Below the pieces are notes generated by a model. That model saw only the letters and a list, made by a program, of their open reading frames with translations, did not search any database and was not told the origin of the DNA. From Vermamoeba vermiformis (Eukaryota), in NCBI GenBank assembly GCA_045837725.1, contig JBEWZL010000056.1, positions 310,001 through 374,000 on the forward strand: a stretch of 64,000 bases of DNA, given 5' to 3'. The translations under genes and the position numbers were made by a program. Positions 743-47,530 of this stretch are shown here, in pieces (positions within the stretch are counted from its first letter, which is position 1; each line of letters opens with the position of its first letter).

Positions 743-3736
743 ATGTCGGACCCCTTTTATGCGCGAAGTGATCCGCTATGCATGTCTCTCGAGCAATCGC
801 TGCACGAGAATAGAGACCTTGCCGCTAAACTACTCGAAGACGTGGCTAAGACTGAAGAGCTCTTAATATCATTGCACAAACAACTCAAGAAAGCTAAAGA
901 ATTCACATCTGCACTCGATCATCAACTCCTCTCTCGCCGCGCAGAGTTGAAGTAAGCTACTACAACTATATGTACTATTACTAACGCCGTGGTTCTAGCG
1001 CGCACTACAAACAGCTCGCTGAGCAGTACGGCGTGCCACTCGAACAGCTGTCCGTGATCACGCTGCTCTCAGACGAGCTCTATTTGGCTATATTTACCTA
1101 CTTTGACTACGTCACGCTCACTGAAATTTCAACGGTAAGTGGCACGTGCTCGCAAATAGACTGCTGATTATGACACGTTTGACAGGTGAGCAAGAAGTGG
1201 CTCACTCTCACGCGGGACAATTCGCTCTGGCTGGCACTGTTCATCAAGTACGCACTGTGCTATAAATAGACCTCTTTTCACTGAAATCACGTGACTGACA
1301 CGTGTCCGCAGAGCCAAAGACAAGTACGTGCCCGAGAGTGTGCGCGAACAAGACCGCAAACGACGCGCGGCACAAGAAGAGCGCCAGAAGAGTTTGACGG
1401 CGCTGAGTGGACTGCACAAACACAAGCGTCGCCTGACTGCTGACAAGCGCGGCACGGAGCTCAGACCTCGCCTGCCCTGTTACTACGCGCACTGGTACCA
1501 CTACTTTGCTGATCGCATGCGCGTGCACAGTTGGGTCTGGCCCGAGACTGCAGCACCGCGCAGCAGACGCGAGGCAGTGGGATTTGGTGCGCCGGAGCCT
1601 GGCTGGGCCCTGGCACTCGAGGACTGCGCGCTGAGTCAACTGCGTCACGGCCGCGTGGAGCTGTTTGACAAGCTGACGGTGGTGCTGGCGGATGTGCAGC
1701 ACGATCTCAACAAGAACTGTAAGTAGTCACGTGATCGCGTGCGAGGGCAGAACTAACGGACCAATCAGCGAACATCTTGACCACTGACGGACTCAACTGC
1801 GACCAGCACGAGCAGTGGGCGGACAGTCTCAGTCTCAAGGCACAGACCAAGACGCCATTCGACGCTGCACTCTTGTGCGAGCGCGCAGTGGACAAGTACT
1901 TGACAGCTGTCAAACAGTTCGAGGACAAATATCTCGCGTCAGTTGACAGCGCACTCGAGGACACTGCGCGTGACAGTCCTGTGCGGCTGTTGACCTCCAA
2001 GCACGACTACAGACGACTCGTCGACTCGCTGCTCAATGAACGCGAGTTACACGCACACGTCGCACGCTATTTGACACGTGTCAATGTCAACAACGTGAAC
2101 ATCAACAACACCAATCAGCTCAACTTTGACGCGCAGCCCCCAAAAGTGTTTGACTTCAGCACTGCATTGACAGCTGTCAGTGAAGAGCTCTCGGGCACTG
2201 ACACTGCGCACACAAGTCTCGATTTGACACCTGTCACATCGTCGAGCTTTGACTTCACCTCCAGTGGCGAACAACTGGATTCAGTGAACCAGCTGTCACT
2301 GGCCCTCAAATTCAATCTAAAAATGGAATCAGCGCCGACCTCCCCCGCAACGAGTGGCGGCAGTTGGAAGAAGAAACGTGTCAAACAGCGGCGTCTCTCG
2401 TTAGGCGAGTGGTCCACACAGCCCAAGCCTCAGTCGCGCACGCACGACGCACTGACCAGTCCACGCGCTACAGCTCAGATCACTGCTGGAAAGACGACGG
2501 ACAAGAAATCAGACCTTGCTGTTATTCGCAAGCACGTGATCTTGACCTTCAAATTGGCCTCCACAGTGATTCGTCTCGCGGAATTACTCGCCACTCAATT
2601 CAGCACGCAGAGTCACAGCGAAGAGATTGGCTTTGTGCTCGCGTTGTATCACATGGCTGAACTGCTGTGCACGCGCCTCATCACTGTGCTGCACACTGAT
2701 TGGCTGCAGACCACGTGGTCACGCTCAGATGACACCGACACCACGGCAAGCACGAGCAGCAGCGGCAGCATTGGCACGAGTGACGAGTTCAGAGCGTGTT
2801 TGAGCGGCAACAACAGTCCGCGCAGTGACCCTGGTGACAGTTCAGGTGTCAACGTGTCACTCGGCAAGTCAGGGCCCCTCGACTTCCAGCAAGAGAGTTA
2901 CTGCTTCTATTGCGGCATCAGAAAGAACCAGTACTTCTCGCTCAAAGTCATCACCGCTCTCGCTCTGCTTCATGAACGACGCGCAAAATTACTGCAACAA
3001 CTGCTCAAAGAAGAAGGGCAAAGTCACGTGGCAGCAGTGCACAGTCCGCGACAACAATCTCCGCGCTCGAGATCTGCCCACAATTCTCCGCTGTCCAGTC
3101 CTCGCGTGACAGGTGCTGCCGGTCGATCACGGCAGCTTTCATTTTTGCTGACAGTACTGCGCCAGTACGAGACATTTGCAGCTCTGCGCAGTTATTTGCA
3201 CATTGAATACGACGCAACACGTCTCGTGAATGAGTATCTCGGAGCGGTGTCCGAAGAGCGCGTGCACGAGTTGTCAGGTCGCGAGTTGAATCACGCGACA
3301 TTTTGTCTGCAACAAGTCACCGCGCTCGATGTCGCCGATCACCAGTCACTGTTTGAACTCGCGCGCATCTATGCGGTCATGGTACGTGGCCTGTTGTGAA
3401 CTAACTCGGGTGCGTACTCACTAGTGTTTGCAGGGCAATGAAGTGGAGTGCGAGAAGGTGTTGGCGCGGTGTGCGACGGGTGACAGGTGTTCAGGGCCGC
3501 TGGATCTGGACGACTTTGACAAGTACCGCCACACTGCCTGGTTCAGAACCGTTGTGCAGGTGCAACGTCCTACTCCGAGTGTGCCTGAACGACTCGATCA
3601 CGTGACTCTCAATCTGCCAGGGCTGCCTGAAGAGCCGACGGCCCAGGGTAGAAAAATGTTCAAAGCGAAGAAGCGCGTCACTCCGATCGGCACCATTCCC
3701 GAATCTGACGGCAAACCTGAGCCCGAACCAAAATAA
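743..3736 (+). CDS. F-box domain protein with long uncharacterised C-terminal region (multi-exon)
   Basis: Exon 1 (743-~951) splices via GT-AG introns to ITLLSDELYLAIFTYFDYVTLTEIST|VSKKWLTLTRDNSLW, an F-box consensus. It then continues through ORFs 1328-1726, 1777-3399 and 3428-3736. Confidence 0.7.
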
Positions 3737-4223
3737 CAATGTACTGAACCCATTAATTTATTTGTACTATAGTCACTTTGTAAATATTAGCTCTAGTTAC
3801 ACTTCAAAAGCTTAAATGAAGCATGCCGATAATCGACTGCTACTTACTCGCTACTAACTTGACGCGTCATCGCTTTTGCGGGAAGTATATTCGTACTTAA
3901 TTAAAGTACTCTTGCACAAGGTGCAACAGATTACAGTGCTTTATCGAGTATAGGACCAAAACAAAAGAACGAAAACTCGTTGACAGCTTACCTGACAAGA
4001 ACCTCGATCTACTTTTGGTGAGGCTGCAGAATATTGACGTGCTTATTGACAAGAACGATAGGTCATCCAAATTCCGATGCCTCATCATTCTCTGTTGTTC
4101 TCGCTGATTAGCGACCACAATTGCGATCCGATCTGATCTTCGAAAAAAACCAAAAAACAAACAAATAATTACAGCTTAGCGCATGGCCTATCATTAATCA
4201 CTCCAAATATATGATTACCAGTC

Positions 4224-5397
4224 ATGGAACAGAGACGAAACGACAATTTGCAGCAGAAGCCGACAAATCCACCAAGATATTTATTGCAACCTTTCCAACA
4301 ATATTTACCTCCGCCAGCAGAACAAGACATTTATTATAGTGCCCCTAACTATGCCTATCATCATGCTACTCAAGGCCCACTTACTGCGCATCAAACACAC
4401 GTTTTCGATTCATTCGGCGCGTCATCTGTCACCGGACTCGACTCGGATTCGCATCACTATGACGAGCTATATGCGGATATAGAACAACTCGTCAGTGTCA
4501 TTAATACGAGCGAATCATTAGGCATAGAGACGCATGCTTTACCGCTCGATCTTCGACGCAGTTCGGCAGCAGCGCAGCGCATTTACGGCGCCGTGACCGC
4601 GCAGAGTGAGGTGCCTGTGACTGACATGCAACGCGTCGTGTCTGCACTGCACGATGTGACGACTGGTAAGTGACGCACAGAACTGCAGATCCAATTCAAT
4701 CGATTTATTGTCATTGCGCGACTTACTTAATGCTCGCTATAATGACCACCTTGTTATTATTAGACTACAACTACACGCACTTGCAACTCCTCGAACAAGT
4801 GGATCAGATCTGCACCGCGGTGACGCACGAGTCCGAGCAACAGTTCCAGCACGTGCTGCACGCACCACTCACGGGCAAGCAAGACGCGCACGACGACGAG
4901 CTCGTGTTTCACGTGACTGCAGTCAACACGGCACACGATGCACCGCGCCACCAGCTGATCGATGTGCGCATCACTGACGCCAAGCCCAAGCGTGCTGTCA
5001 CTCGCCGCGGCAATCTGCCACGTGACAGTGTCGCGCTGTTGAAGAAATGGTGAGAGTTCTCGACCAGGGCTGTCACGTGACTGACACTGTTCGTTTGCAG
5101 GTTCTACGAGCACCGCGCCAATCCGTACCCGAGTGACGACGAGAAGCGCGTGTTGATGTCCGCGACGCGCTTGACGAGCACGCAACTGACCAACTGGTAC
5201 GTGTGAACAGTGCCGATGTCGCATGGTGATTGTGTGTGGGGGTCACTAACTAGTCGCGCAGGTTCATCAATGCAAGAAGACGATTGACAAAAAAGGCAAT
5301 GGCCAGTCCATCGGACAGCTCCGAGCCCGATCTCGATGACGAGCACGTGACTGAGACGTATTCACTGGAGGACACGCACAACGATGAAGTCACGTGA
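4224..5397 (+). CDS. TALE-class homeodomain transcription factor
   Basis: Spliced homeodomain RRGNLPRDSVALLKKW|FYEHRANPYPSDDEKRVLMSATRLTSTQLTNW|FINARRR, with the PYP three-amino-acid loop extension and WFIN motif. Stop TGA at 5395-5397. Confidence 0.9.
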
Positions 5398-5496
5398 TCG
5401 GTGGGGTGGTCGCTGAGTGTTGTTTGCCAAATTAGGAGTGTGTCGGGAGCCATCGACATCACGTGATGTGACCAAATAGAGGTCAGTGAACGCCGT

Positions 5497-6826
5497 TCAT
5501 GAATCAGTGTCACGTGACAATAAATCGAAGCTGTACAACTCATTGCACTGTTTGATGAACTGTTCGAGCTCCTCAATGACACCTGTCACTTTGCGACCCT
5601 TGCCAGCACGCAGTTGTTCGAGTTGCTGCACCTTGTCGCGGTAGGACTTGTACGCGCGCTGCACCGTGTCGTGACTGGCGATCAGTCGTCGCAGTTGCAG
5701 TCGTTGCTGTTGTTCGAGCAGTGCCACGTGCCGCGTCAGTTGCGTCGTGCTCTCACCCTCGCCCTCGTGTTCGATCACGTGCTCGGGATTGATGTTCAGG
5801 TCCACGTCTTGATCAGTCACGTGCTCCTCTTGCCGTTTTAGGACACGTTCAATCTCCTCGCGCTGTTTCATCATCACCGAGAGCACCCACGGATCATCCT
5901 GACCAATCACGTGACGGACAGGTGGCGCAGCAGTCACGTGACGCGGCGGTGCAGTGAGTTCCATGGACTCGGCGCTGTCCTCCAACCAGGGCATGTCCAC
6001 GTCATCGTCGCTGTCAAACGCGTCGCCTTCAAAGCTAGCACTGTCCGCATGTGAGTCGTAGTCCTGCGAGTCCTCGGACTTGACTGCTGCGCGCTCTGCT
6101 TCGGCACTGTCTTCTTCTTGACGCGAAATTTCATCTTCCGAGTGCTGTGATTGGTCACGTGACTTGTGCCCGTACCGATGACCCGCGCCGATCATGCGTC
6201 CAGGGCGCGCAACGGGTGCTAGTTCTACTCCGCCCAGTGTGCGCCACTGTACGAAACTGGTGCCGCGTGAGTGGATGTGCCTTGTTAACGAGCTGAACTG
6301 ACTCACCTCGTGTATTCTTCGGACTGCAACACTTCTTCGAGCTGTTCGCGCGTCAAGTGAGGTACGAGTGGTGCAGCGAGTGCGAATACATCTTGTTTGA
6401 GCTTGTCGGCGAGCTGTTGCGCTGTGTGCAGCTGATTGAACTGATCGCGCTGCTCGGGGCGCATGTTGTTCACCATCCTATGCAGCAATATTTTTAAGTG
6501 GATGTATAGTATACTAGTGTAAATAGGACAATAGACATATTAAAAAAATAATTTTTTGACATTTTTCTAATTAATTCCTACTTGCTTAAAGCGATCCGTT
6601 GCCGATCCTCTTCATTAACACGCACAATAGTTGGAACAAGATCACTGTGCGACACAAAATGTAACATGCATGCACGGCGACCAACTTGCACTGCCAATCC
6701 GCTCGTGCTGATCTCTTCGCGCAAAGCAGCGCGCCACTCGTCAACATTGTGAACGGTGCAATAGCGGAACCAGGGACTAGAGACACGTCCCCTGCATATG
6801 AAACAATACTGCATGCTAGCACTCAT
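5497..6826 (-). CDS. Protein with N-terminal THAP-like C2CH zinc finger and coiled-coil/acidic C-terminus
   Basis: ATG at 6826 gives YCFICRG...W...WRAAL...ACMLHF...LVPTI. GT-AG introns link it to ORFs 6303-6488 and 5497-6306. Confidence 0.55.
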
Positions 6827-34445: not shown

Positions 34446-37341
34446 ATGGACAAAAAGAGAAAATTGATCGATATCAACTATGACGATAGCAATGAAAGTC
34501 GTCGCAAAAAATCCAAGAAATATTCAGACGAAGAAGAAGTGTTGTCAGATGCAGAAGGTACGAAAATAATTCGTTAATAACAATAATTATAATAACACCG
34601 CTGCGTAACCGCTCAATATTCACCCCCTCGACCACTACTATTCGCGTCTATATCTGACCCTGGCATTAGAGGCAGCAGTGCGTGCAGGGTTTCCAGCGCA
34701 CTCGTTGACGTGGGGTGAACTCGAAGCCTACATGAATATGACTGCTGCGAGCACTGCTACGCGCGAGAGTGAACAGCTGGCAGATGTCTACTTGCAGATA
34801 CGCAATCATCTGCTCTGGCGCTGGAAGCTCGATCCCGCGCACTACTTGTCGTACGCCTCGCTGTACCGCGCAGAGTCCAAGCAGCACGTGCCCAGCTACA
34901 TCGAGCAGCACGCGGGCTGTGTGTTGCGCGTGTTCGAGTACTTGATGCGCAACGGCTTCATCAACGTCGGTGTGTTCAACGATGACTTGCGCGCGCAAGA
35001 GGATCCGATCGACTTGACTGCCACGCAAGCTGCTGACGGTACGTACGGCATTCATGAACGCAAATCACGTGATCGACTGACAGCAGTGACAGCACGACCC
35101 TTGCGCGTACTGGTGATTGGTGCCGGGGCAGCAGGACTCGCGGTGGCACGTCAACTTACCACATTAGGCAATGGCAAGGACTATCACGTGACAATCTTAG
35201 AAGCACGTGATCGACTCGGAGGTCGCGTGTGGACAGAGACGACAGCACTGCACGGTACACCGATCGATCTCGGGGCCTCGATCATCACGGGACTGATCGG
35301 CAATCCGCTCGACGATCTCCACGCGCAGATGCAGTGCGAGACACGTGTCATTGGCGAGACTGCACGACTGCTGTCACGTGACGGCAGTGTGAGCGGTGCC
35401 GAGCTGGAGGAGCAGGACAGCAAGATGGACAAGCTGTTCAACGAGCTGTTGGAACAAGTCAGCCGACACAAGCACAAGCACGCAGCGGACAAGAGTCTCG
35501 GCGATGAGCTCAACAGACTGCGGCCCTCCCTCACACCCCTCGCGCGCGCAGTGCTCGACTGGTACTACGCCAATCTCGAGTACGCGTGTGCCACCGATCT
35601 GAGTGCGCTGGGTGTGCGCGAGTGGGACCAAGACGATCCGTACGAGTTCGAGGGCGAGCACTTGATGTGCTGCTGGGGATATGCCACCTTGATTGCTAAA
35701 TTAGGCAATCGCTTGGACATCGTCTACAACACTGCTGTCACGCGCGTGGAGTACTCGGAGGACGGTGTCACTTGTCACGTGACACGCGATGGACAGCACG
35801 CGGAACAATTGCAGTGCGACATTTGCGTGGTGACAGTGCCGCTCGGTGTGCTCAAAAAGAATTGCATTCAATTCGTGCCACCACTCCCTGATTGGAAGTC
35901 TGAGGCCATTGCCAAATTAGGCTTTGGCTTGCTGAACAAGGTCGGAATATTGTTTGAAGAAATCTTCTGGGAGCGAGATCTCGATTGGTTTGGCGTGGTG
36001 AACAGCAATCTGCCCTCGGAGCGGCGCGGAGAATATTACCTATTTTGGAACATGTACAAGTTCACTGGCAAGCCCATGCTGATGGCACTCGTCGCTGGTC
36101 ACGCGAGTCAGTTGCACGAGTCACGTGACGATGCTGTCATCTTGCGCGATGTGCTCGAGTTGTTGACGCGAAATTTCGGCAAAGACAATCCAGCACTGAT
36201 ACGAGTGATCAAATCTCCGCTGAGTCACGTGATCACGCACTGGGGCACCGATCGCTGGGCCTATGGCTCGTACAGCTACATTGCCGTGGGTGCCACTGGC
36301 AACGACTACGATGCGCTGGCACGCCCAGTGTGGCTCGGCGGAGTGCCGCGGCTATTTTGGGCAGGCGAGGCCACCAATCGGCTGCACCCTGCCACCGTCG
36401 CGGGGGCTTATCAATCAGGGCTGCGCGAAGCGGAACAAATTCACCGTCACTTCCATCCCCCTCGATATTATTCCGCTGCACCACTGCGGAATATCCCGAC
36501 CGATGTGGAGCCCAATCATCACATGGAGAGCTGCGACGAATTCTTTGCACAAATTAGTGGCCACGAACCGCGACACGAGCACGTGGCTGAGCGGTCTAAG
36601 CGTCGTGGCATTGTGAAATTTCGTCACCGACCACGTGACACGCAGTTCAAGTACGAGATGCAGTTCCAAGTCAAGACTGAAACTAGTGCAAACACTGCGC
36701 ACGTGACCGAAGATCGGTATCGTAATTACGGATCTATTTTTAGCTTCTCGCCCAAAAAGCCACGTGACGCGCGACCAATCACCTCACCGCGCAGTGACAC
36801 GCGACCAGACAGGCCGCGCTACGACGACAGACCCAAATATAGTAACAATCGCTCGCCGCTGAATCGATCACGTGACTCCGACTCGGACAGATCGCGCTCT
36901 AATTATAGCAACAATCGCTCGCACAGATCGGAGTCGTCAACCAATCGCGGGACATCCGATCGGCGTTCAGTGAACGAGACAGCTGTCAACTCCACTGACA
37001 CTTTGCCTCGGCGCAGCGACGACCTCAATCGAGCTGTCAAACAGAATTCTTTGCCGCACGTGTCAACACCTGTCAAAAATGGCAATGGTCGTGCGCACGA
37101 GGACGACACGCAGCGGAAAAAATACCGCGATGAAGTTGCAGCCGTGGTGACGTCACTGCTGTCGCCGTATTACAAGCGACAGATTGCCACCAAGGAAGAA
37201 TTCAAAGAGCAGGCGCGGAAATTCACGCACAACATTGTGGATAGTGATCTCCAGAGCGGAGATGAACTCGTGCTCACGGAACAGAAACGCGCAAAGATTA
37301 AAGAGATGTTGCAACAATTTTTCGAGAATACACGGCAGTAA
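34446..37341 (+). CDS. Lysine-specific histone demethylase LSD1/KDM1-like (SWIRM + FAD amine oxidase + C-terminal SRI-like domain)
   Basis: SWIRM motif YLQIRNHLLWRW...FEYLMRNGFINVG, VIGAGAAG, LEARDRLGGRV, DLGASIITGLIGNP, LEYACAT, GLLNKV (catalytic Lys) and AGEATNRLHPATVAGAY.SGLREA. Confidence 0.92.
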
Positions 37342-40127: not shown

Positions 40128-41329
40128 ATGAGTCAGCACATCCAAACAACACCGAGTCCCACAGGACCAGTAGTCATTAATCCCCCGCCCAGCCAAGAGA
40201 CCGATGAATATGAACACGCTAAATTCGGCGTATTACATCGCGAGATATTCTGCCGTGCAGATCTGGACGAGTTCAAACAAACAGCGACCTACGCGCAGTG
40301 GCTGCAATTCATCACCGAGTTGACGGAGAGTGTCAAGGGCCTGCCCTGCTCGACAGAGTGTCACATCTCTGCGGTACGTAGCGACTGTCATTGCACTGAC
40401 AACGAGGACTAACAGTGGTGTGTCGCATCCAGCCCGTGCAGCACGTGATCGACATGTTGCACACCCTGCAGCAGTGGATCCAAGAGATTCCTCCGCTCGA
40501 GAACCTCAAGTCCCGATTTGGCAATCCTGCATTCCGCATCTGGTACGAGCGCGTTGTGTCACGTGCGCCCGAGATGTGGCAGTGGCTGAGTGGCAGCGTG
40601 GCAGCGGAACAACAGCGGGAAATCATGGGCTACTGGTGCCACTGCTTCGGGAGTGCCGTGCGACTGGACTACGGCACGGGGCACGAGTCACACTTCATGG
40701 CCGTGCTGTACTGTCTGACACGCGTGCACGTGATTGGTCAGGACGACTACCGCGCCCTGGTGCTGCGCGTGACGAGTGCGTACTTGGCCCTGATGCGGCA
40801 GTTGCAGACGGTGTACTGGCTCGAGCCTGCAGGATCGCACGGCGTGTGGGGATTGGACGACTATCACGTGCTGCCGTTCCTGTTCGGCGCGAGTCAGCTG
40901 ACCGAGCACAAGTACATTCGACCCAAGAGCATTCACAGCGCCGAGGTCGTGGAGGGCTATGCCGCAGAGTGGCTCTACTTGCAGTGCATTCAGTTCATCA
41001 ACAGCGTCAAGACTGCCTCGCTGGCCTGGCACAGTCCGATGCTGAACGACATCAGCGGCGTGAAGAGCTGGGCCAAGATCGCACAGGGACTGTTGAAGAT
41101 GTACACGCACGATGTGTTGGACAAGCTGCCCATCATGCAGCACTTCTTGTTCGGCACGCTGATTCCATTCACGGCCTCGCATCACCACGAGCACGTGACT
41201 GGCGCGGAACAACACGATCACGTGCACGAAGAGACGGAATTTCCGAGCTGCTGCATCTCCAAACTGCCCTCCGCTGCTGCTGTCAAAGCTGTCAACAATA
41301 ACCGCAATTCTTTCGTGCCCTTCGATTAG
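40128..41329 (+). CDS. PTPA: Serine/threonine phosphatase 2A activator (PTPA/Rrd family)
   Basis: SRFGNPAFR, FGSAVRLDYGTGHE, YWLEPAGSHGVWGLDDYH.LPF and KLPIMQHFLFG motifs. Confidence 0.95.
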
Positions 41330-41382
41330 CACCCACTTGCCTAATTTGGAACTACTTGCATGTAAATAGTCGTTGTAAATCT

Positions 41383-44300
41383 TTATTTGAGGTACCCGTG
41401 TCGCTTCATATATTGCAAATATTTGTCAATGAGATCACGTGACATGCTCGGACACGCCACTGCCAAATTAGTACATTCCACAGGGTCGTCGGATGGCACT
41501 CCGTCACTGAAGTAGGCCATTAATGGTGCGAGGGCGTTGTTCTTGGCATTCGCTTCGAGTTCTTTGCGCCATTCAGTGAACCGCACGATATTGTGCGGTC
41601 TGTTGCCAAATATGGTGCTTTGCGTGATGTAAGTGATGAAGTCTTGCCAGGACATGGCGGAATTATTCACTAGATTTACAACGTGCAGTCTGGTGCCCTG
41701 GTGAATGTCCTTCAAACTTTGCAGAACGATATTCTTTGCTACAATGTCGACCGGAATCCAATTCAGGGCACTGGACAAATTAGGAAATGACCCTAACTGC
41801 ACGAGACCAGCCATCAGCTTGTTGATGTATGCTTCCATATTTAGTGCGCCATGCACTGTGTCGCCTGAAATAGAGCCAGGTCGGTAAATCGTTGCTGCCA
41901 AATTAGGCAATTGTTCGACAGCAGTGCGCACGAATTCTTCCGCGACAAATTTGCTGAGCGGATAACCCCCGTCTCTGGACCACAGCTGCGACTGATCGGC
42001 CAGGGTCGAGGCTGTCGAGATGTAGTGGAGATTCTTGCCACGTGACAGCGCGGAATATTTCAACACGTCAATGACAGCATGCACGTTGACAGCACGCAGA
42101 CTCTTGTAGGGCCACAGACCTAAATGCAGCTGTCAGTCACTGATTGACACGTGTCAAAGTGAAGTTTGTACCATTCACCCACGCTGCATTGTGAATCACG
42201 TGGTCGGTTTGCGCGGCTAGTTCAGTGAACCGCTCCTGAGTGAGTCCAAAATAGGCAAGATTTAAATCTCCTTCTAGCCACGTGATTCGCGCTGAGGTTT
42301 CAATCTCCTGCACGAGATTGCTGTCAATTTCGTACTTGCGCAGTGTGGCGCTGATTGAGTGTTGTGGAGGGGCTGATTTTTTCCTAATTAGGCAAACGAT
42401 CTGTCCATTCGAGGGCAAACAGCGATATAATTCCGCTAACAAGAACGAGCCCAAGAAGCCAGTGACACCTGTCAACGTGTCAACTTCGAGTACTTGATGC
42501 CACATTTAGCATGCACGGACCTGTCACTAGAACTGTCTTTGTGTCACTCGTTGCGACGGGCACGTGACACGCAGGGCGATCTTTGAGCCAAGCGATTGCC
42601 TTATTTAGTAATTCCGTGTCCTCGCGCACCAATTGCGTCAGTTCCGCGCTGGTGTTGATCACGTGACTGGCACTGCCGCGCCGTTGACGCAGCGCTGCAA
42701 TGATTTCAGTCAGTCGCGCGACACACTCGTCCGTGGTCTAAATTAGGCAATTAGTGATGACAACTATTTTTAGCGACACACGCACGTGATTGACGAGCAG
42801 ATCGATGAGACACTTGTGATCGAGTGGCACTGCGAACAGTTGACTGAGGCGATTGATGAGTTCTATGGTGGCAATGCTGTCCACCAGCACGGCACTCACT
42901 GGCACTGTGCCGGGTACTTGCGAGCCCACTTGCGACTCGATCACTTGCCTAATTTGGACTGGCAATTCGTCTGAAGTGATCACGTGCTCGCTTGGCTGTT
43001 CAGTGAACAGTGCCGAGAGTTCAGTTCTAAATTTAGCTACAATGGCGCGGCGATTGATTTTGTCGGTGGCTGTCAACAGGCCATTCACTGAACTCCACTT
43101 GACAGGTGTCAAAATCACGTGTTTGATGCGCTCGAAAGTGCGTAGCTGCATAGCATTAGAAATGTCCAAATTTGGCAAACTTTACCTTATTTAGAGTCGC
43201 CAAGTATCTGAAATCGTTCAAAATCAGTTCTTTCACGTCGCTTCTTCCGCAATAACTTTCTAAATTAGGCAAGTCGGTGCCACCAACGTCCACGCCGAAA
43301 TGTTCGTTGAGTGCGGTCAGATTAGGCACTACAATTGCGACCAAAAAAGGAAATGCAGATTCGCCGTGAATGCACACGTGATCGACAAAAGTGCTCTTAA
43401 AATAGATCAGTTCCATCTCGTTCAGTGAAACAAATTCTCCCTGCGACAGTTTGACGATGTTTTTCTTGCGATCGATGATGCGCACCATTTTAGGACCTTC
43501 GAGCTGACCGATATCTCCCGTGTGGAACCAGCCGTTCACGAACGAGTTGGTGCTGTCACCGGAGTTCAGTGAATGAGTGGCAGTGACACGTGTCAAATCA
43601 AGACTTACGTCGTGTGCTCATCTTTGTAATATCCCAAGCTCTGGCGTGAACAGTCAGTTGATGCCTAAAAAGGAAATCCAATACTTGCCATCGTATTTGT
43701 GCGCACGACAATTTCTCCGCGCGGATAAGGTCGATCAGTGGAGAAATATCCGAGTTCGGGGACATCAATGAGCTTGCATTCTGTGAAATACATCGGTAAG
43801 TTCCATATTTGGGCATGTCACGTGACTTACCAACATTGTCCTTAATGTACTCGTTGACAGCAATGCCACCGACCTCTGTGATGCCATAGCTGTTGAACAC
43901 TGTCGCGCCACACCTGTCACGTGATCAGATCAGCACACTTGCCTTATTTAGTAATTCTTGCCTCTGAAATTTGCGCATCCAAGACAGCACTTTGTCGCTG
44001 GTCGGTGCACCACCTATCGCGCGAGAATTAATCGCAATGACATGTGACAGGTGTCAAACACGCACCCGTGACGAGACCCACAGCGCGTCCCCCAAAGTAC
44101 TGCGCGTAAAAGAGTTCAATCAGCGAGTCGTGCAGCTCATTGTCGCGCTGATTCTCGAGCACATATGTCGTGTCGCCCGTGCGCAGAGTGGTGTGACTGT
44201 CACGTGACTGCACTGCACCCTCGCTCTGCAGCACACTCAGCGCGCGCTCGTACTCGTGGTAGACAAAGTTCCACAGCCGCGGAGATCCGACAATGACAGT

Positions 44301-46304
44301 TGGTTTCAGTGAACGCAGACACGCGAACAGCTCCATGCTGAACTCTTGCTCGAACACGCCTGACCGACCTCCCGCCCTGCCTTATATGGTCAATCCGTGC
44401 TGACAAGATGACACGTGTCACTCACAGCATCACGTTGTAGGTGTTGGTGCGTTGCGCGTGACTGAGTGGTTCCCAGCACAGCTCAACCAGGGTCTCAAAC
44501 AGCGGAGTGCTGTAGGCACACTCGCGCATCATGGTGCCCTGGTCCAACATGGCGCCCTTGGGTCTGCCAGTGCTGCCACTCGTGTAGCCAATGGAGCACA
44601 GATCACTCGCCGCGCTGGTGTCGAGTAGCACCGTGTCAATGTGCGCACCCTGGTAGAGTGGACTACTGTTAGGGATTGGTGTTTGACACCTGTCAACTCA
44701 CTCACCATGTTCATCACGTCTTGCAAGTCGTACAATGACACGTTAGGGGCTATTTTTAGCTCTGAACGATCTTCTTCAGCGAGTTCTTCCAAACAAATCA
44801 CGTGCTTCAGTTTGGGACACGTGACAGCAGCTGTCATGAACTGACACCTGTCAATACCCGCATGTGTTTCACGAATGGCCGTCACTTACTCTGGGAATCA
44901 ACTCCGCGCTGCAGAACACTGCTGTCACCTCCGCGTGCTGTGCGATGAATTGCAGATCTTCGTCGCTGATCACGTGGTGCATTGGCACTGCGATGTAGTT
45001 CGATACTATTATGGACATGTCTGCGAGCAACCACTCTATTTTTGGCTTGCTACACACGGCCACGTGATCTCGCTGCGTGCAAATGAGCGAATGACACGTG
45101 TCAAACGGAGATACGTACCTTGTTCAGAATGACACTCAGACCTGCTGCTATTTTTAGCACTTCTTGCGCCAAGTCCTCAGCGGTGAGCCACGCCCAGTCA
45201 CCGCGCCATCTTCCAAGACATGGTCGACTGCCAAATAAGGTTAAAGCAGCCAAGATTGACTGACACATGGTGGGATATCTCACGCGCCAGGCCACATCGA
45301 CCTGCAAATGAACTGCAAAGCTATGAGCGACACGTCTAATAATACGAGAGTGACCAAGAACTGCCGTTCATGAACGTACGTTGTTCGCGGTAAGTGGTAT
45401 GGTGGTGCTTTTTGCCAAATTTGGCTTGACACGTGTCACAGACATGATACGTCTTGTCACAGTCGCGCTCGAAACATCTGTTCACGTGCTCGCCTGGCTC
45501 AATGCGCTCTGAACAGCTGTCGCGCGGTTAGTGCCAATTACCAAATATAGTAATCTTACCTCGTGCAAAAGTCACTGCGGCAGTAGTCTTTCAGTGAATT
45601 CAGATCTGACCACTCTTTGCGGACCATCACGTGCTTTTCACTGACAGTGGTGTCTTCAAAGCTAAATTTAGCTTGGCGTTCACTGAAGCGGGCAGCAAGT
45701 GCCAGCAGCGCAGTTGATTTGAAGAGCAATTCCACGCCTAAACTCTGTAAGTACGTCGTCCATATTAACTCTGCCCATCTCTCCACGTACCCTCGCCAGT
45801 GCGCGCACTGCACTTGATGACACGTGCCCGCTGTTGCAAGGCAGTCAGATCTGCTACCGGCACGAGTTCTCGATCCACACCGCACTGCACAAACACTACG
45901 CGCGCACCTTTGTTCAGTAGCGGCACTATCTCGTCATAGTACTGCCAGATGGTTAGTACCAGTGTATCAATAGGCCACATCCACCTTAGTAACAGCAGCA
46001 GTGTCGTCATCGGCCTTGAAACAAATTAAAAATATATCTGTCGCGGGAGATACAGCTTGGCGGTGTTGCAGAGCCTCACCACCTGATTAGAGGCAGTTAA
46101 TGGAAAGTAATAATAAAATTAATAAATGAGCAGCGTACCAGTGTCCCACAGGCCTATTATACACACGCGACTAATAGGCAGCGAATAGAGTTCAGCAGTA
46201 GTGTGCTGCTCTTCAGTCAGCCACTCGTTGTATACGTAACGGTGGATCAGGCTCGTCTTACCACACCGTGGTGTGCCAATCACGGTGTATTTAATGCTGT
46301 TCAT
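41383..46304 (-). CDS. Small GTPase-like + ZZ-type zinc finger + carboxylic-acid-reductase-like (adenylation-thiolation-reductase) multi-exon gene
   Basis: GTPase: [30 protein letters not shown] finger: CTSC...RC...C...VCDTC...HHH. A domain: [44 protein letters not shown] domain: VDSI. R domain: [24 protein letters not shown]. Confidence 0.8.
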
Positions 46305-46582
46305 TCGATTGTTATGATATTATTATATGCTCATAGAGTTGTATTTCTCTGCATAAAATCAAGACGTTGGCGGTTGTATTGTAATTATTCGCGCAGCATT
46401 AAGGTCGAGTAGTTGTTGCAGTGATGTCTCTTGCTCGATACAACAACGCAATCTCTGTGCGGAGGTCTGATCCGCAAAATTTACCTGTCAACGAACGTGT
46501 CAAAGAAAAAGCGCCGTTGGTCCCGAGAGGGAGTAAAGACTTTGACACAGCAGTGATATCCACAATAGAGTCTTGTCTATAC

Positions 46583-47530
46583 ATGTCGTATTTATTTTAT
46601 TTTGCCCTTGTAGCTGCATTGTTCAGCGTAAGTGATTCTAATTCCACAACTGAATCCAGCCCTGTCAATTTGCAACAAGTCAAGTTATGATTATCGATCC
46701 TCATTATTGACAAACATGCTAATTTTACACGAATATTCACCGTTACCAGCCTTGAAAATTAACTGCTATCTAAATCCGACTCTTCAGGCGTTGAATGCGC
46801 AGTCCTGTGACGTCAAATACGTGAACGGATTGGCCCCTGAGTGCATCTCTAAGAAGAGCACTGTGCCATATTGTCGGTTGGACGTCTACACGAGTGGCGC
46901 AACCCCCATCTGCGGCGAGTGTTTGACGGATTGTGACTGCGATCTGGGCCAGTACTGCTCCAGCGCACCAGAGACACTCGGCACCTGCGTGGCATTCAAA
47001 GCTGCTGGTCGCGACTGCTTGCCGTTCACTGAAGCGCAGCTCGAGAACTCAGATTTCGATGCCAGTCTCAAATGGTGAGCTATATTTAGCGCAGTGCAGC
47101 AACTAACTGACTGACAGTGCGGATCTGTTCACCGTGAGTGGTGCCAATGCGTCCTTAGTCATCGACCATCAAGGGGTGTGTCTCAGCGGTACGTGCCAGT
47201 ACTGCGCGGAGTTCGGTGCAGTGACCAAGACACGTGGTTTTGTCACGTGCTCCGAGGGCAGTGGCACCAACAGCCCGCGCGAGTGTGTGTGGCCTGGCCT
47301 GTTGATTGAACCCCTCGACAAGGCGTGGCAGCCTGCTGTCTATATCCGCGACCGTGTTGGTGAGTTGTGTTTCGCACTCTAATATATAATCTAATGATAT
47401 CAATATACCTCTATTATCACTATTGACGATGATTAATGCTTGGTGTGTAGCGGTGTGGACTGCGATCCTATTCCCCCTCATGGTGATAGCCATAACTGTA
47501 TTCGGTATTAGTGCTTTCAGAACCAAATAG
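46583..47530 (+). CDS. Small Cys-rich type I membrane / surface protein
   Basis: Signal peptide MSYLFYFALVAALFS, Cys-rich exons (CGECLTDCDCDLGQYC), and last exon AVWTAILFPLMVIAITVFGISAFRTK* (TM helix). Confidence 0.7.

Follow-up and report, generated by a model that had tools for sequence, protein, structure and literature searches.

Do a Ras-like guanine nucleotide-binding (G) domain, a zinc finger and an enzyme resembling the carboxylic acid reductases (CARs), read in succession from one strand of DNA, belong to one gene, and if so, what might the protein do? The question is raised by a locus of Vermamoeba vermiformis lying in a stretch of 64,000 nucleotides (nt) from contig JBEWZL010000056.1 of GenBank assembly GCA_045837725.1 (forward-strand positions 310,001 to 374,000); this whole stretch is referred to here as the window, and all coordinates are positions within it. 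The locus is one gene with one open frame, which runs from the G domain through a linker and a ZZ-type finger into adenylation (A), presumed carrier (T) and thioester reductase (R) domains, and our results show that it is transcribed and spliced to one mRNA encoding a protein of about 150 kDa.

A single spliced gene

The frame opens with an ATG at 46304-46302 and closes with a TAA at 41385-41383 on the minus strand, limits equal to those of an initial annotation of the window, which had proposed one continuous frame joined by canonical introns. An intron model built by hand and then checked by script bears this out: the 19 exons give a coding sequence of 4014 nt with no internal stop. Introns are 40 to 67 nt long and 16 of the 18 have GT-AG ends; the other two, introns 11 and 13 (43961-43914 and 43688-43641, minus strand), are of the GC-AG type with donors GCAAGA and GCAAGT, and both are consistent with joints in run X2 and with the related protein P0001, each described below. 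We believe two GC-AG introns among 18 to be an unusually high share for a single gene. An alternative GT donor for intron 11 was dropped, as the GC-AG form fits both P0001 and the X2 joint. The motifs listed beforehand for the GTPase, the finger, the carrier (the serine of VDSI) and the reductase were all found on the minus strand at the coordinates assigned to them. The annotation was also correct that no AT-rich gap lies between the domains: the GC content is 0.49-0.53 over 45050-45650, as against 0.40-0.43 in the true intergenic stretch 46100-46850.

Exon 4 (45737-45560) by itself encodes the helix after the G5 motif, the linker and the first cysteine of the finger, so that the G domain and the finger cannot be separate genes; intron 4 then interrupts the first CxxC knuckle of the finger. 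At the junction between the finger and the adenylation domain there are three candidate acceptors, of which only 45313 is in frame. The acceptors at 45321 and 45302 were rejected, as was retention of intron 5, each of them leading to an early stop; an in-frame stop lies inside intron 5 at about 45328. The joint 45312->45380, which skips 67 nt with CT..AC ends, is present in one contig each from X1 and X2, public runs from two studies (8 of the 12 X1 records are >=99% alike, and those of X2 are mostly 95-99% alike). Its support is a depth of 3.8 with 35 nt on the shorter side in X1, and a depth of 5.66 with 90 nt in X2. The annotation had been concerned that out-of-frame acceptors at the junction near 45315-45380 might break the fusion; the sole acceptor seen in contigs is the in-frame 45313. 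Together with intron 5, introns 1, 2, 7-13 and 15-18 are spliced in X1 or X2 contigs, making 14 of the 18 model introns among the joints listed.

The same architecture is found in a relative. A search among longer proteins with the 45-residue finger exon led to one cluster, 93% identical over that exon, containing P0001, an uninterrupted open reading frame (ORF) of 1344 residues with precomputed Pfam assignments to Ras, Roc, AMP-binding and NAD_binding_4. The window protein is collinear with P0001 and 84% identical to it (1130 of 1345 alignment columns), the junction residues included. ORFs of 1344 residues occur four times in this cluster (P0001, P0005, P0008 and P0012), on contigs of 4243, 4852, 5583 and 5705 nt; these are too short to hold roughly 900 nt of introns in addition, which identifies them as spliced messages. 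The cluster also contains P0007 (1241 residues) and P0004 (210 residues, beginning midway in the G domain and reaching past the finger into the A domain), and the residues at the intron 5 junction are identical in P0001, P0004, P0007 and P0012. Exon fragments of 115 residues in the same cluster continue into introns, on contigs as long as 364 kb, which shows that the genomic copy of the relative has introns as well, and in a further relative, L002 (about 70% identical), the boundaries of exons 1-5 are the same as in the window gene. A near-length search with residues 1-255 returned P0001 alone among 1590 candidates, a metagenome locus scan with P0004 returned two short loci only, and the best ESM Atlas score for residues 1-255 was 0.82, which is below the level that shuffled sequences also reach and serves as a lead only.

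A CAR-like C-terminal part

The C-terminal part appears from its sequence to be a CAR/FadD9-like A-T-R reductase with intact core motifs, in line with the three domains given in the initial annotation. Pfam AMP-binding is matched on exons 7, 9 and 10 (6.8e-7 for exon 7 and 8.7e-11 for exon 9) and by residues 271-680 of P0001 (1.4e-48), and adenylation motifs A3, A5, A7 and A8 and the A10 lysine are all present. The serine of the presumed carrier motif VDSI is residue 891; it aligns with the serine of GVDSM in the relative P0027, in which Pfam PP-binding is matched at 705-767 (E 5.3e-10). In the reductase domain, a TGVTGFLG Rossmann motif is located at residue 993 and YPLSK, which has the YxxxK form, at residue 1145; residues 1000-1230 of P0001 match Pfam NAD_binding_4 at 1.8e-47 (162 bits, cut-off 20.1), and the R domain matches the MxaA reductase in the PDB at 7.8e-42.

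The three domains follow one another as in bacterial CARs: residues 310-1143 of P0001 align with residues 114-927 of 5mso (E 2e-67) in a single stretch that covers A, T and R. The NCBIfam CAR equivalog NF041592 is the top model for both P0001 (E 4.5e-108) and P0027; TIGR03443, a model of aminoadipate-semialdehyde dehydrogenase, matches at 1.7e-48 over the T-R part only. In the Atlas, the whole protein adjoins bacterial CAR clusters with a score of 0.93, and the Ras family appears in none of the 10 cluster rows listed, which name at most three Pfam families each. One source already labels P0001 as "fatty acid CoA ligase FadD9" and the relative P0024, considered below, as "small GTP-binding protein".

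Ascomycete A-T-R (NRPS-like, that is, resembling nonribosomal peptide synthetases) clusters in the Atlas, with proteins of about 1230-1240 residues, bear the automatic name 'gluconokinase', which suggests that other N-terminal additions to fungal A-T-R reductases exist.

A ZZ-type finger before the adenylation domain

The finger has the ligand pattern C-x2-C-x12-C-x4-C-x6-C-x2-C-x7-H-x-H. Ligand columns C12, C15, C33, C40, C43, H51 and H53 are invariant in all seven family members, and the third cysteine is present in six of the seven. A profile of the finger region built from these seven members (A1) matched the ZZ domains of p300 (8.4e-5) and CBP (1e-4 and 1.9e-4) in the PDB; UBR boxes ranked behind them, at 0.006 or higher. 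An AlphaFold2 model of P0004 has a mean pLDDT of 55.6, a low value that reflects the truncation of both flanking domains, and 83-92 in the finger blocks. When this model was compared with known structures by Foldseek, the top ranks were taken by the ZZ domains of p62, CBP, p300 and HERC2. About 50 columns superpose with an rmsd of 2.1-2.7 A, and stand-alone ZZ chains reach target TM scores of 0.62-0.76; all E-values were 0.13 or higher and none reached 0.001, as is expected for a domain of 45 residues. Among seven relatives scanned with Pfam ZZ (E <= 0.01), P0026 alone was matched, at 18.8 bits against a cut-off of 21.4. We therefore accept the finger (residues 196-237), described earlier as ZZ-like, as a probable ZZ-type domain by predicted fold and ligand pattern, and not by Pfam threshold. 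Known ZZ domains bind the free N-termini of partner proteins. They are located in chromatin, ubiquitin or autophagy proteins, and are not known on adenylating enzymes.

A Rho-like G domain with altered motifs

The N-terminal domain contains the G1 motif GTPRCGKTS at residues 10-18 (46277-46251), the G3 motif WDTGG at residues 53-57 (across intron 1), CGVD in the G4 position at residues 108-111 and the G5 motif CSART at residues 132-136. Exon 1 alone matches Pfam Ras (PF00071) with an E-value of 2.2e-5 and 24.5 bits, above the gathering cut-off of 21.6, and residues 5-148 of P0001 do so at 2.5e-9 and 37.3 bits; G1 and G3 have the GxxxxGKT and DxxG forms of the Ras superfamily. Pfam Roc gives a weak match on P0001 (2.2e-5), below its cut-off. 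A search of the PDB with P0015, a fragment from a relative that spans G1-G3, returned 463 sequences at E <= 0.01; the best was Rnd3/RhoE (1.1e-10, with the first 81 residues of P0015 aligned), followed by RhoD, RhoA, RhoC, RhoB and Rac.

Several hallmarks of this superfamily are altered. G4 is CGVD where [NT]KxD is canonical, and glutamate follows DTGG in place of the catalytic glutamine; proline occupies the position equivalent to Gly12. In the relatives G4 is CCVD (L002) or CESD (P0024), and P0024 has arginine at the position of the catalytic glutamine. The distance from the G4 aspartate to the CSA of G5 is only about 20 residues, which leaves no Rho insert; the corresponding spacing in RhoA is about 38 residues. 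Rnd3/RhoE is a hydrolysis-deficient Rho protein, and Rnd proteins are constitutively GTP-bound and lack the catalytic residues. The window protein, P0001, P0015, P0018, P0020, P0021, L002 and P0024 all retain the P-loop GxxxxGK[ST], DxxG, the G4 aspartate and, in G5, SA[RK]. The likeliest reading of this pattern is a G domain that binds nucleotide but hydrolyses it poorly, and it may not be a classical switch.

Conservation of the N-terminal module is similar to that of the enzyme. Identity between the window protein and P0001 is 135 of 165 columns in the G domain, 33 of 40 in the linker and 42 of 45 in the finger, and 512 of 587, 105 of 131 and 303 of 377 in the A, T and R domains. In comparison with L002, nonsynonymous divergence (pN) is 0.21 in the G domain (152 codons), 0.14 in the linker (38 codons) and 0.07 in the finger (44 codons), and synonymous divergence (pS) is saturated at 0.64-0.74 (0.73 in the G domain and 0.74 in the linker), a pattern that shows purifying selection on the N-terminal module.

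The finger as the probable older appendage

An exhaustive HMMER search with P0004 over 1.84 billion representatives yielded nine proteins at E <= 1e-3. Two of these (P0016 and P0022) are fragments of close relatives and one (P0029) is an unrelated TPR protein; the remaining six (P0023-P0028), 30-40% identical, are genuine distant relatives. Each of these has the finger at a constant spacing ahead of the conserved stretch with which the A domain opens. P0024 (990 residues, about 35% identity) has a Pfam Ras match at 4e-20, then the finger, then AMP-binding. We interpret the start of P0023, which has no Pfam Ras match, as half of a G domain, with G4 and G5; a coiled stretch comes next, then the finger and then the A domain. 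A search for relatives of P0023 in viral contigs found none. No G domain precedes the finger and A domain of P0025, P0026 and P0027, of which P0027 is a complete finger-A-T-R protein of 1169 residues, and P0028 is a fragment of 163 residues that begins at the finger.

Because the finger is present in relatives both with and without a G domain, it is the older appendage: the ZZ finger appears to be an ancestral N-terminal appendage of a CAR-like subfamily, and not a linker between two worlds. The second knuckle of the finger is C-x4-C in the window protein, P0001, P0023, P0024 and P0028, and we infer that the G domain was added in this branch. To judge from the databases searched, the family with a ZZ finger before the A domain is small and rare, and the fusion is not confined to one genus. 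A membrane anchor in the relatives without a G domain was considered and rejected as too weak, with a clear N-terminal hydrophobic segment in one of the three (Kyte-Doolittle values of 1.8 for P0026, 1.14 for P0025 and 0.79 for P0027).

A proposed mechanism and its alternatives

The best overall explanation, and one that we regard as likely, is a single spliced G-ZZ-A-T-R protein with CAR-type catalysis, a ZZ binding appendage and a G domain that would act as an address or gate, the catalysis and the gating being predicted from sequence comparison. As in the CAR family, the A domain would activate a carboxylic acid with ATP; a fatty acid is the most likely substrate, given the acyl-CoA-synthetase-like motifs of this domain. 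The acyl group would then pass to a phosphopantetheine arm on Ser 891, where NAD(P)H-dependent reduction of the thioester by the R domain would yield an aldehyde. The fixed position and the conservation of the ZZ finger suggest that it belongs to the enzyme as a built-in appendage that binds proteins or peptides. Least certain is the part played by the G domain: added before the finger in one branch, it may still bind guanine nucleotide and hydrolyse it poorly (glutamine to glutamate, Rnd-like), and its role may be to position or gate the reductase by binding partners in a nucleotide-dependent way, and not to act as a fast on/off switch.

A number of observations weigh against this explanation. 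Introns 3, 4, 6 and 14 are absent among the joints listed, which comprise all but two, and that X1 and X2 are RNA is a guess; their contigs lack many introns and so must stem from processed RNA or else from a gene copy that has none, and a continuous coding sequence is supported in both cases. In the RNA-seq runs X12 and X14, 22 and 70 reads were obtained, respectively; most are 90-95% alike, their alignment is only partial, and none of them falls on 45128-46500. We treated them as reads from relatives or paralogues that are uninformative on the N-terminal part. Conceivably, an extra internal promoter gives a shorter isoform. In the enzyme, Pfam PP-binding is unmatched in P0001 (E <= 0.1) and the carrier exon has no match in the PDB at E <= 1, the carrier domain being too divergent for either search; the thioester-reductase model TIGR01746 scores 206.5 bits, just below its cut-off of 213.35; and NF041592, at 362.4 bits for P0001 and 371.3 for P0027, falls far short of its cut-off of 1300, so that neither protein is assigned to the CAR equivalog. 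Pfam ZZ (PF00569) is unmatched on the finger exon (E <= 1) and on P0001 (E <= 0.1). The G domain has no lipidation signal, a consequence of its being N-terminal and fused, and the loss of both the asparagine and lysine of NKxD and the catalytic glutamine makes nucleotide binding itself uncertain. A prediction of the complex between the G domain (residues 1-170), ZZ-A (residues 196-835) and GTP gave a score of 0.00, which is no answer and weighs neither way.

Two alternatives concern the gene and its reaction. The locus might consist of two adjacent genes, G-ZZ and A-T-R, with separate products, the joined form being a read-through or chimeric transcript or a product of assembly. The genome is compact, with the frame of the neighbouring PTPA gene ending at 41329, only 54 nt from the stop of the GTPase-reductase gene; residue 258, close to where the A domain begins, is a methionine; and a G-ZZ protein would be terminated by the in-frame stop if intron 5 were retained. 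These features are outweighed by the use in contigs of the in-frame acceptor only, the sharing of exon 4 by the G domain and the finger, the four full-length ORFs of the relative's cluster, the finger-to-A spacing and flanking residues kept down to about 30% identity, the joining of the finger to the A domain in P0025-P0027 in the absence of a G domain, and the lack of the residue 258 methionine in P0023 and P0024; the two-gene reading is already largely refuted, and we give it hardly any weight. It is also conceivable, if rather improbable, that the A-T-R part is not a fatty acid-to-aldehyde reductase and instead either carries out a four-electron reduction to the alcohol, as in MxaA-type enzymes, or acts on an amino or aromatic acid, as do Lys2 and the fungal aryl-acid reductases. 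The similarity of the R domain to MxaA, the TIGR03443 match over the T-R part and the wide margin by which the CAR equivalog cut-off is missed speak for such a reaction, but the best full-length matches are to bacterial CARs (5mso in collinear alignment, NF041592 as top model and the Atlas clusters), the A8 and A10 motifs of the A domain are of the acyl-CoA-synthetase type, and the Lys2 model does not extend beyond T-R.

The remaining alternative concerns the G domain, which could be a pseudo-GTPase: a Ras fold without switching that serves as a constitutive scaffold, dimerisation or docking module and brings no signalling input. We hold this to be a minority prospect, though a serious one. 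It would account for the degenerate G4 motif in the window protein, L002 and P0024, for the replacement of the catalytic glutamine by glutamate or arginine, for the proline at the Gly12-equivalent position and for the top solved match being Rnd3/RhoE, which does not hydrolyse GTP; on the other hand, the P-loop, DxxG, the G4 aspartate and SA[RK] are kept across the window protein and its relatives and pN is far below pS, a pattern that fits retained nucleotide binding better than a mere scaffold. The earlier description of the protein as a signalling-coupled NRPS-like reductase thus survives in part: the architecture, in one gene and one frame, stands, whereas the signalling coupling is left in doubt by a G domain that lacks the catalytic glutamine and the asparagine and lysine of NKxD and that has Rnd3/RhoE as its best match.

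With the G-ZZ-A-T-R protein as the preferred reading, a more specific proposal can be put forward tentatively: a nucleotide-gated or GTPase-addressed carboxylate reductase, in which the Rho-like domain and the ZZ finger would couple the output of a reactive fatty aldehyde, or of a lipid derived from it, to a signal, a membrane or a partner. It would be the first fusion of a small GTPase to an NRPS-like enzyme, one that arose once and was kept in several distant eukaryotic lineages. The annotation had found the architecture unfamiliar, and we likewise found no description of it: within the literature listings and abstract openings covered, no report of a small GTPase or zinc finger fused to a CAR, NRPS-like or adenylation enzyme turned up, and an unremarked database annotation of the architecture may exist. 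As a rule, a small GTPase reaches the enzymes it controls in trans, by way of effectors, and a G domain attached covalently to a metabolic enzyme is rare. If this one controls activity or placement, the protein would be a natural one-polypeptide model of nucleotide gating in a multi-domain carrier-protein enzyme, and small-GTPase signalling would be linked to fatty aldehyde or alcohol metabolism in protists or fungi. The relatives further define a branch of CAR-like enzymes that bear a ZZ finger, and CARs are of practical interest as biocatalysts.

Feature coordinates, neighbouring genes and repeated words

Table 1. Domains and selected introns of the GTPase-reductase gene in window coordinates.
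Feature	Position	Strand	Details
Whole gene	41383..46304	minus	19 exons, 18 introns; 4014-nt coding sequence; 1337 residues; ATG to stop
Rho-like small GTPase (G) domain	45685..46304	minus	residues 1-156; exons 1-4
Introns inside the G-domain region	46138-46083, 45984-45942, 45790-45738	minus	introns 1-3
Linker	45568..45684	minus	residues 157-195; within exon 4
ZZ-type zinc finger (by predicted fold and ligand pattern)	45399..45567	minus	residues 196-237; divided by intron 4 (45559-45517)
Intron 5	45313..45379	minus	67 nt; GT-AG; in-frame link between the ZZ exon and the first exon of the adenylation domain
Adenylation (A) domain, acyl-CoA-synthetase/CAR type	43050..45312	minus	residues 244-833; exons 6-16
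Carrier (T) domain region	42711..43001	minus	residues about 850-930; presumed phosphopantetheine Ser 891 (motif 42887-42858)
Thioester reductase (R) domain	41386..42533	minus	residues about 990-1337; TGVTGFLG and YPLSK

The convergent neighbour of the GTPase-reductase gene encodes PTPA, a phosphotyrosyl phosphatase activator (40400-41329, plus strand; Pfam 1.2e-104). With so short a distance between the two stops, the 3' ends must overlap or nearly touch, as befits a compact genome. Further along, a single plus-strand frame of 910 residues (34609-37341) has matches to SWIRM (2.4e-8), flavin amine oxidase (1.8e-79) and, at the C-terminus, SRI (Set2-Rpb1-interacting; 6.4e-15). From these domains the protein looks like an LSD1-like histone demethylase with a module that binds the C-terminal domain of RNA polymerase II, and the SWIRM-amine oxidase-SRI combination could be an unusual fusion in its own right.

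The window has 133 copies of the hexamer CACGTG where 15 would be expected, an excess of about 9-fold that is confined to about 33000-55500 and 1000-6000 (3-8 per kb); at 6-33 kb and 55-64 kb its density hardly departs from background. Extended at both ends, the motif has the consensus RTCACGTGAY, an E-box of the bHLH/Cbf1 type; the spacing is random (coefficient of variation 1.03), and copies are found in exons, in introns and in several unrelated genes. The exons of the GTPase-reductase gene hold 18 sites, 11 of which are read in frame as His-Val, and the over-representation is strong enough to bring the HV dipeptides of the protein to 13 where 3.5 are expected.

A 12-mer palindrome, TGACACGTGTCA, has 11 copies in the window. 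Four lie in introns 18, 14, 9 and 6 of the GTPase-reductase gene (42145, 43584, 44409 and 45092, respectively) and the others at 2072, 25806, 37425, 45427, 48268, 50807 and 54259. One-mismatch variants are TGACACCTGTCA (six times) and TGACAGGTGTCA (four times), and many copies fall in the 40-67-nt introns of the gene; the palindrome may be an element that introns have in common, or it may belong to the excess of CACGTG. The word TTGCCTAATTTG, counted with its reverse complement, has five recurrences in the window, several of them in exons and introns of the gene (example positions 41345, 41905, 42390, 42750, 42955 and 43270).

Comparison with known systems

Bacterial CARs, represented by the Nocardia and Segniliparus structures 5mso, 5msc and 5msp and by mycobacterial FadD9, share with the window protein the collinear A-T-R order, motifs A3, A5, A7, A8 and A10, TGxxGxxG, YxxxK and, presumably, the carrier serine. 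In contrast to them, the window gene is eukaryotic and intron-rich, and its product has about 250 extra N-terminal residues that hold the G domain and the ZZ finger. Rnd3/RhoE of the Rho family resembles the G domain both in the P0015 alignment and in the loss of the catalytic glutamine; the window G domain differs in having no Rho insert, in the change of NKxD to CGVD and in the absence of a C-terminal CAAX box, which follows from its N-terminal fusion to an enzyme. The ZZ domains of p300/CBP, p62/SQSTM1 and HERC2 have the same eight cysteine and histidine ligands in cross-brace order, and differ in that their second knuckle is C-x2-C and that of the G-bearing branch is C-x4-C.

A small-GTPase fold joined covalently to an effector or enzyme domain, as in the window protein, is also found in the ROCO/LRRK kinases, RhoBTB, Miro and TRIM23/ARD1. 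The window protein presumably stands apart from all of these in that it has none of their COR, BTB, EF-hand or RING domains, and the partner of its small-GTPase fold is a metabolic A-T-R enzyme.

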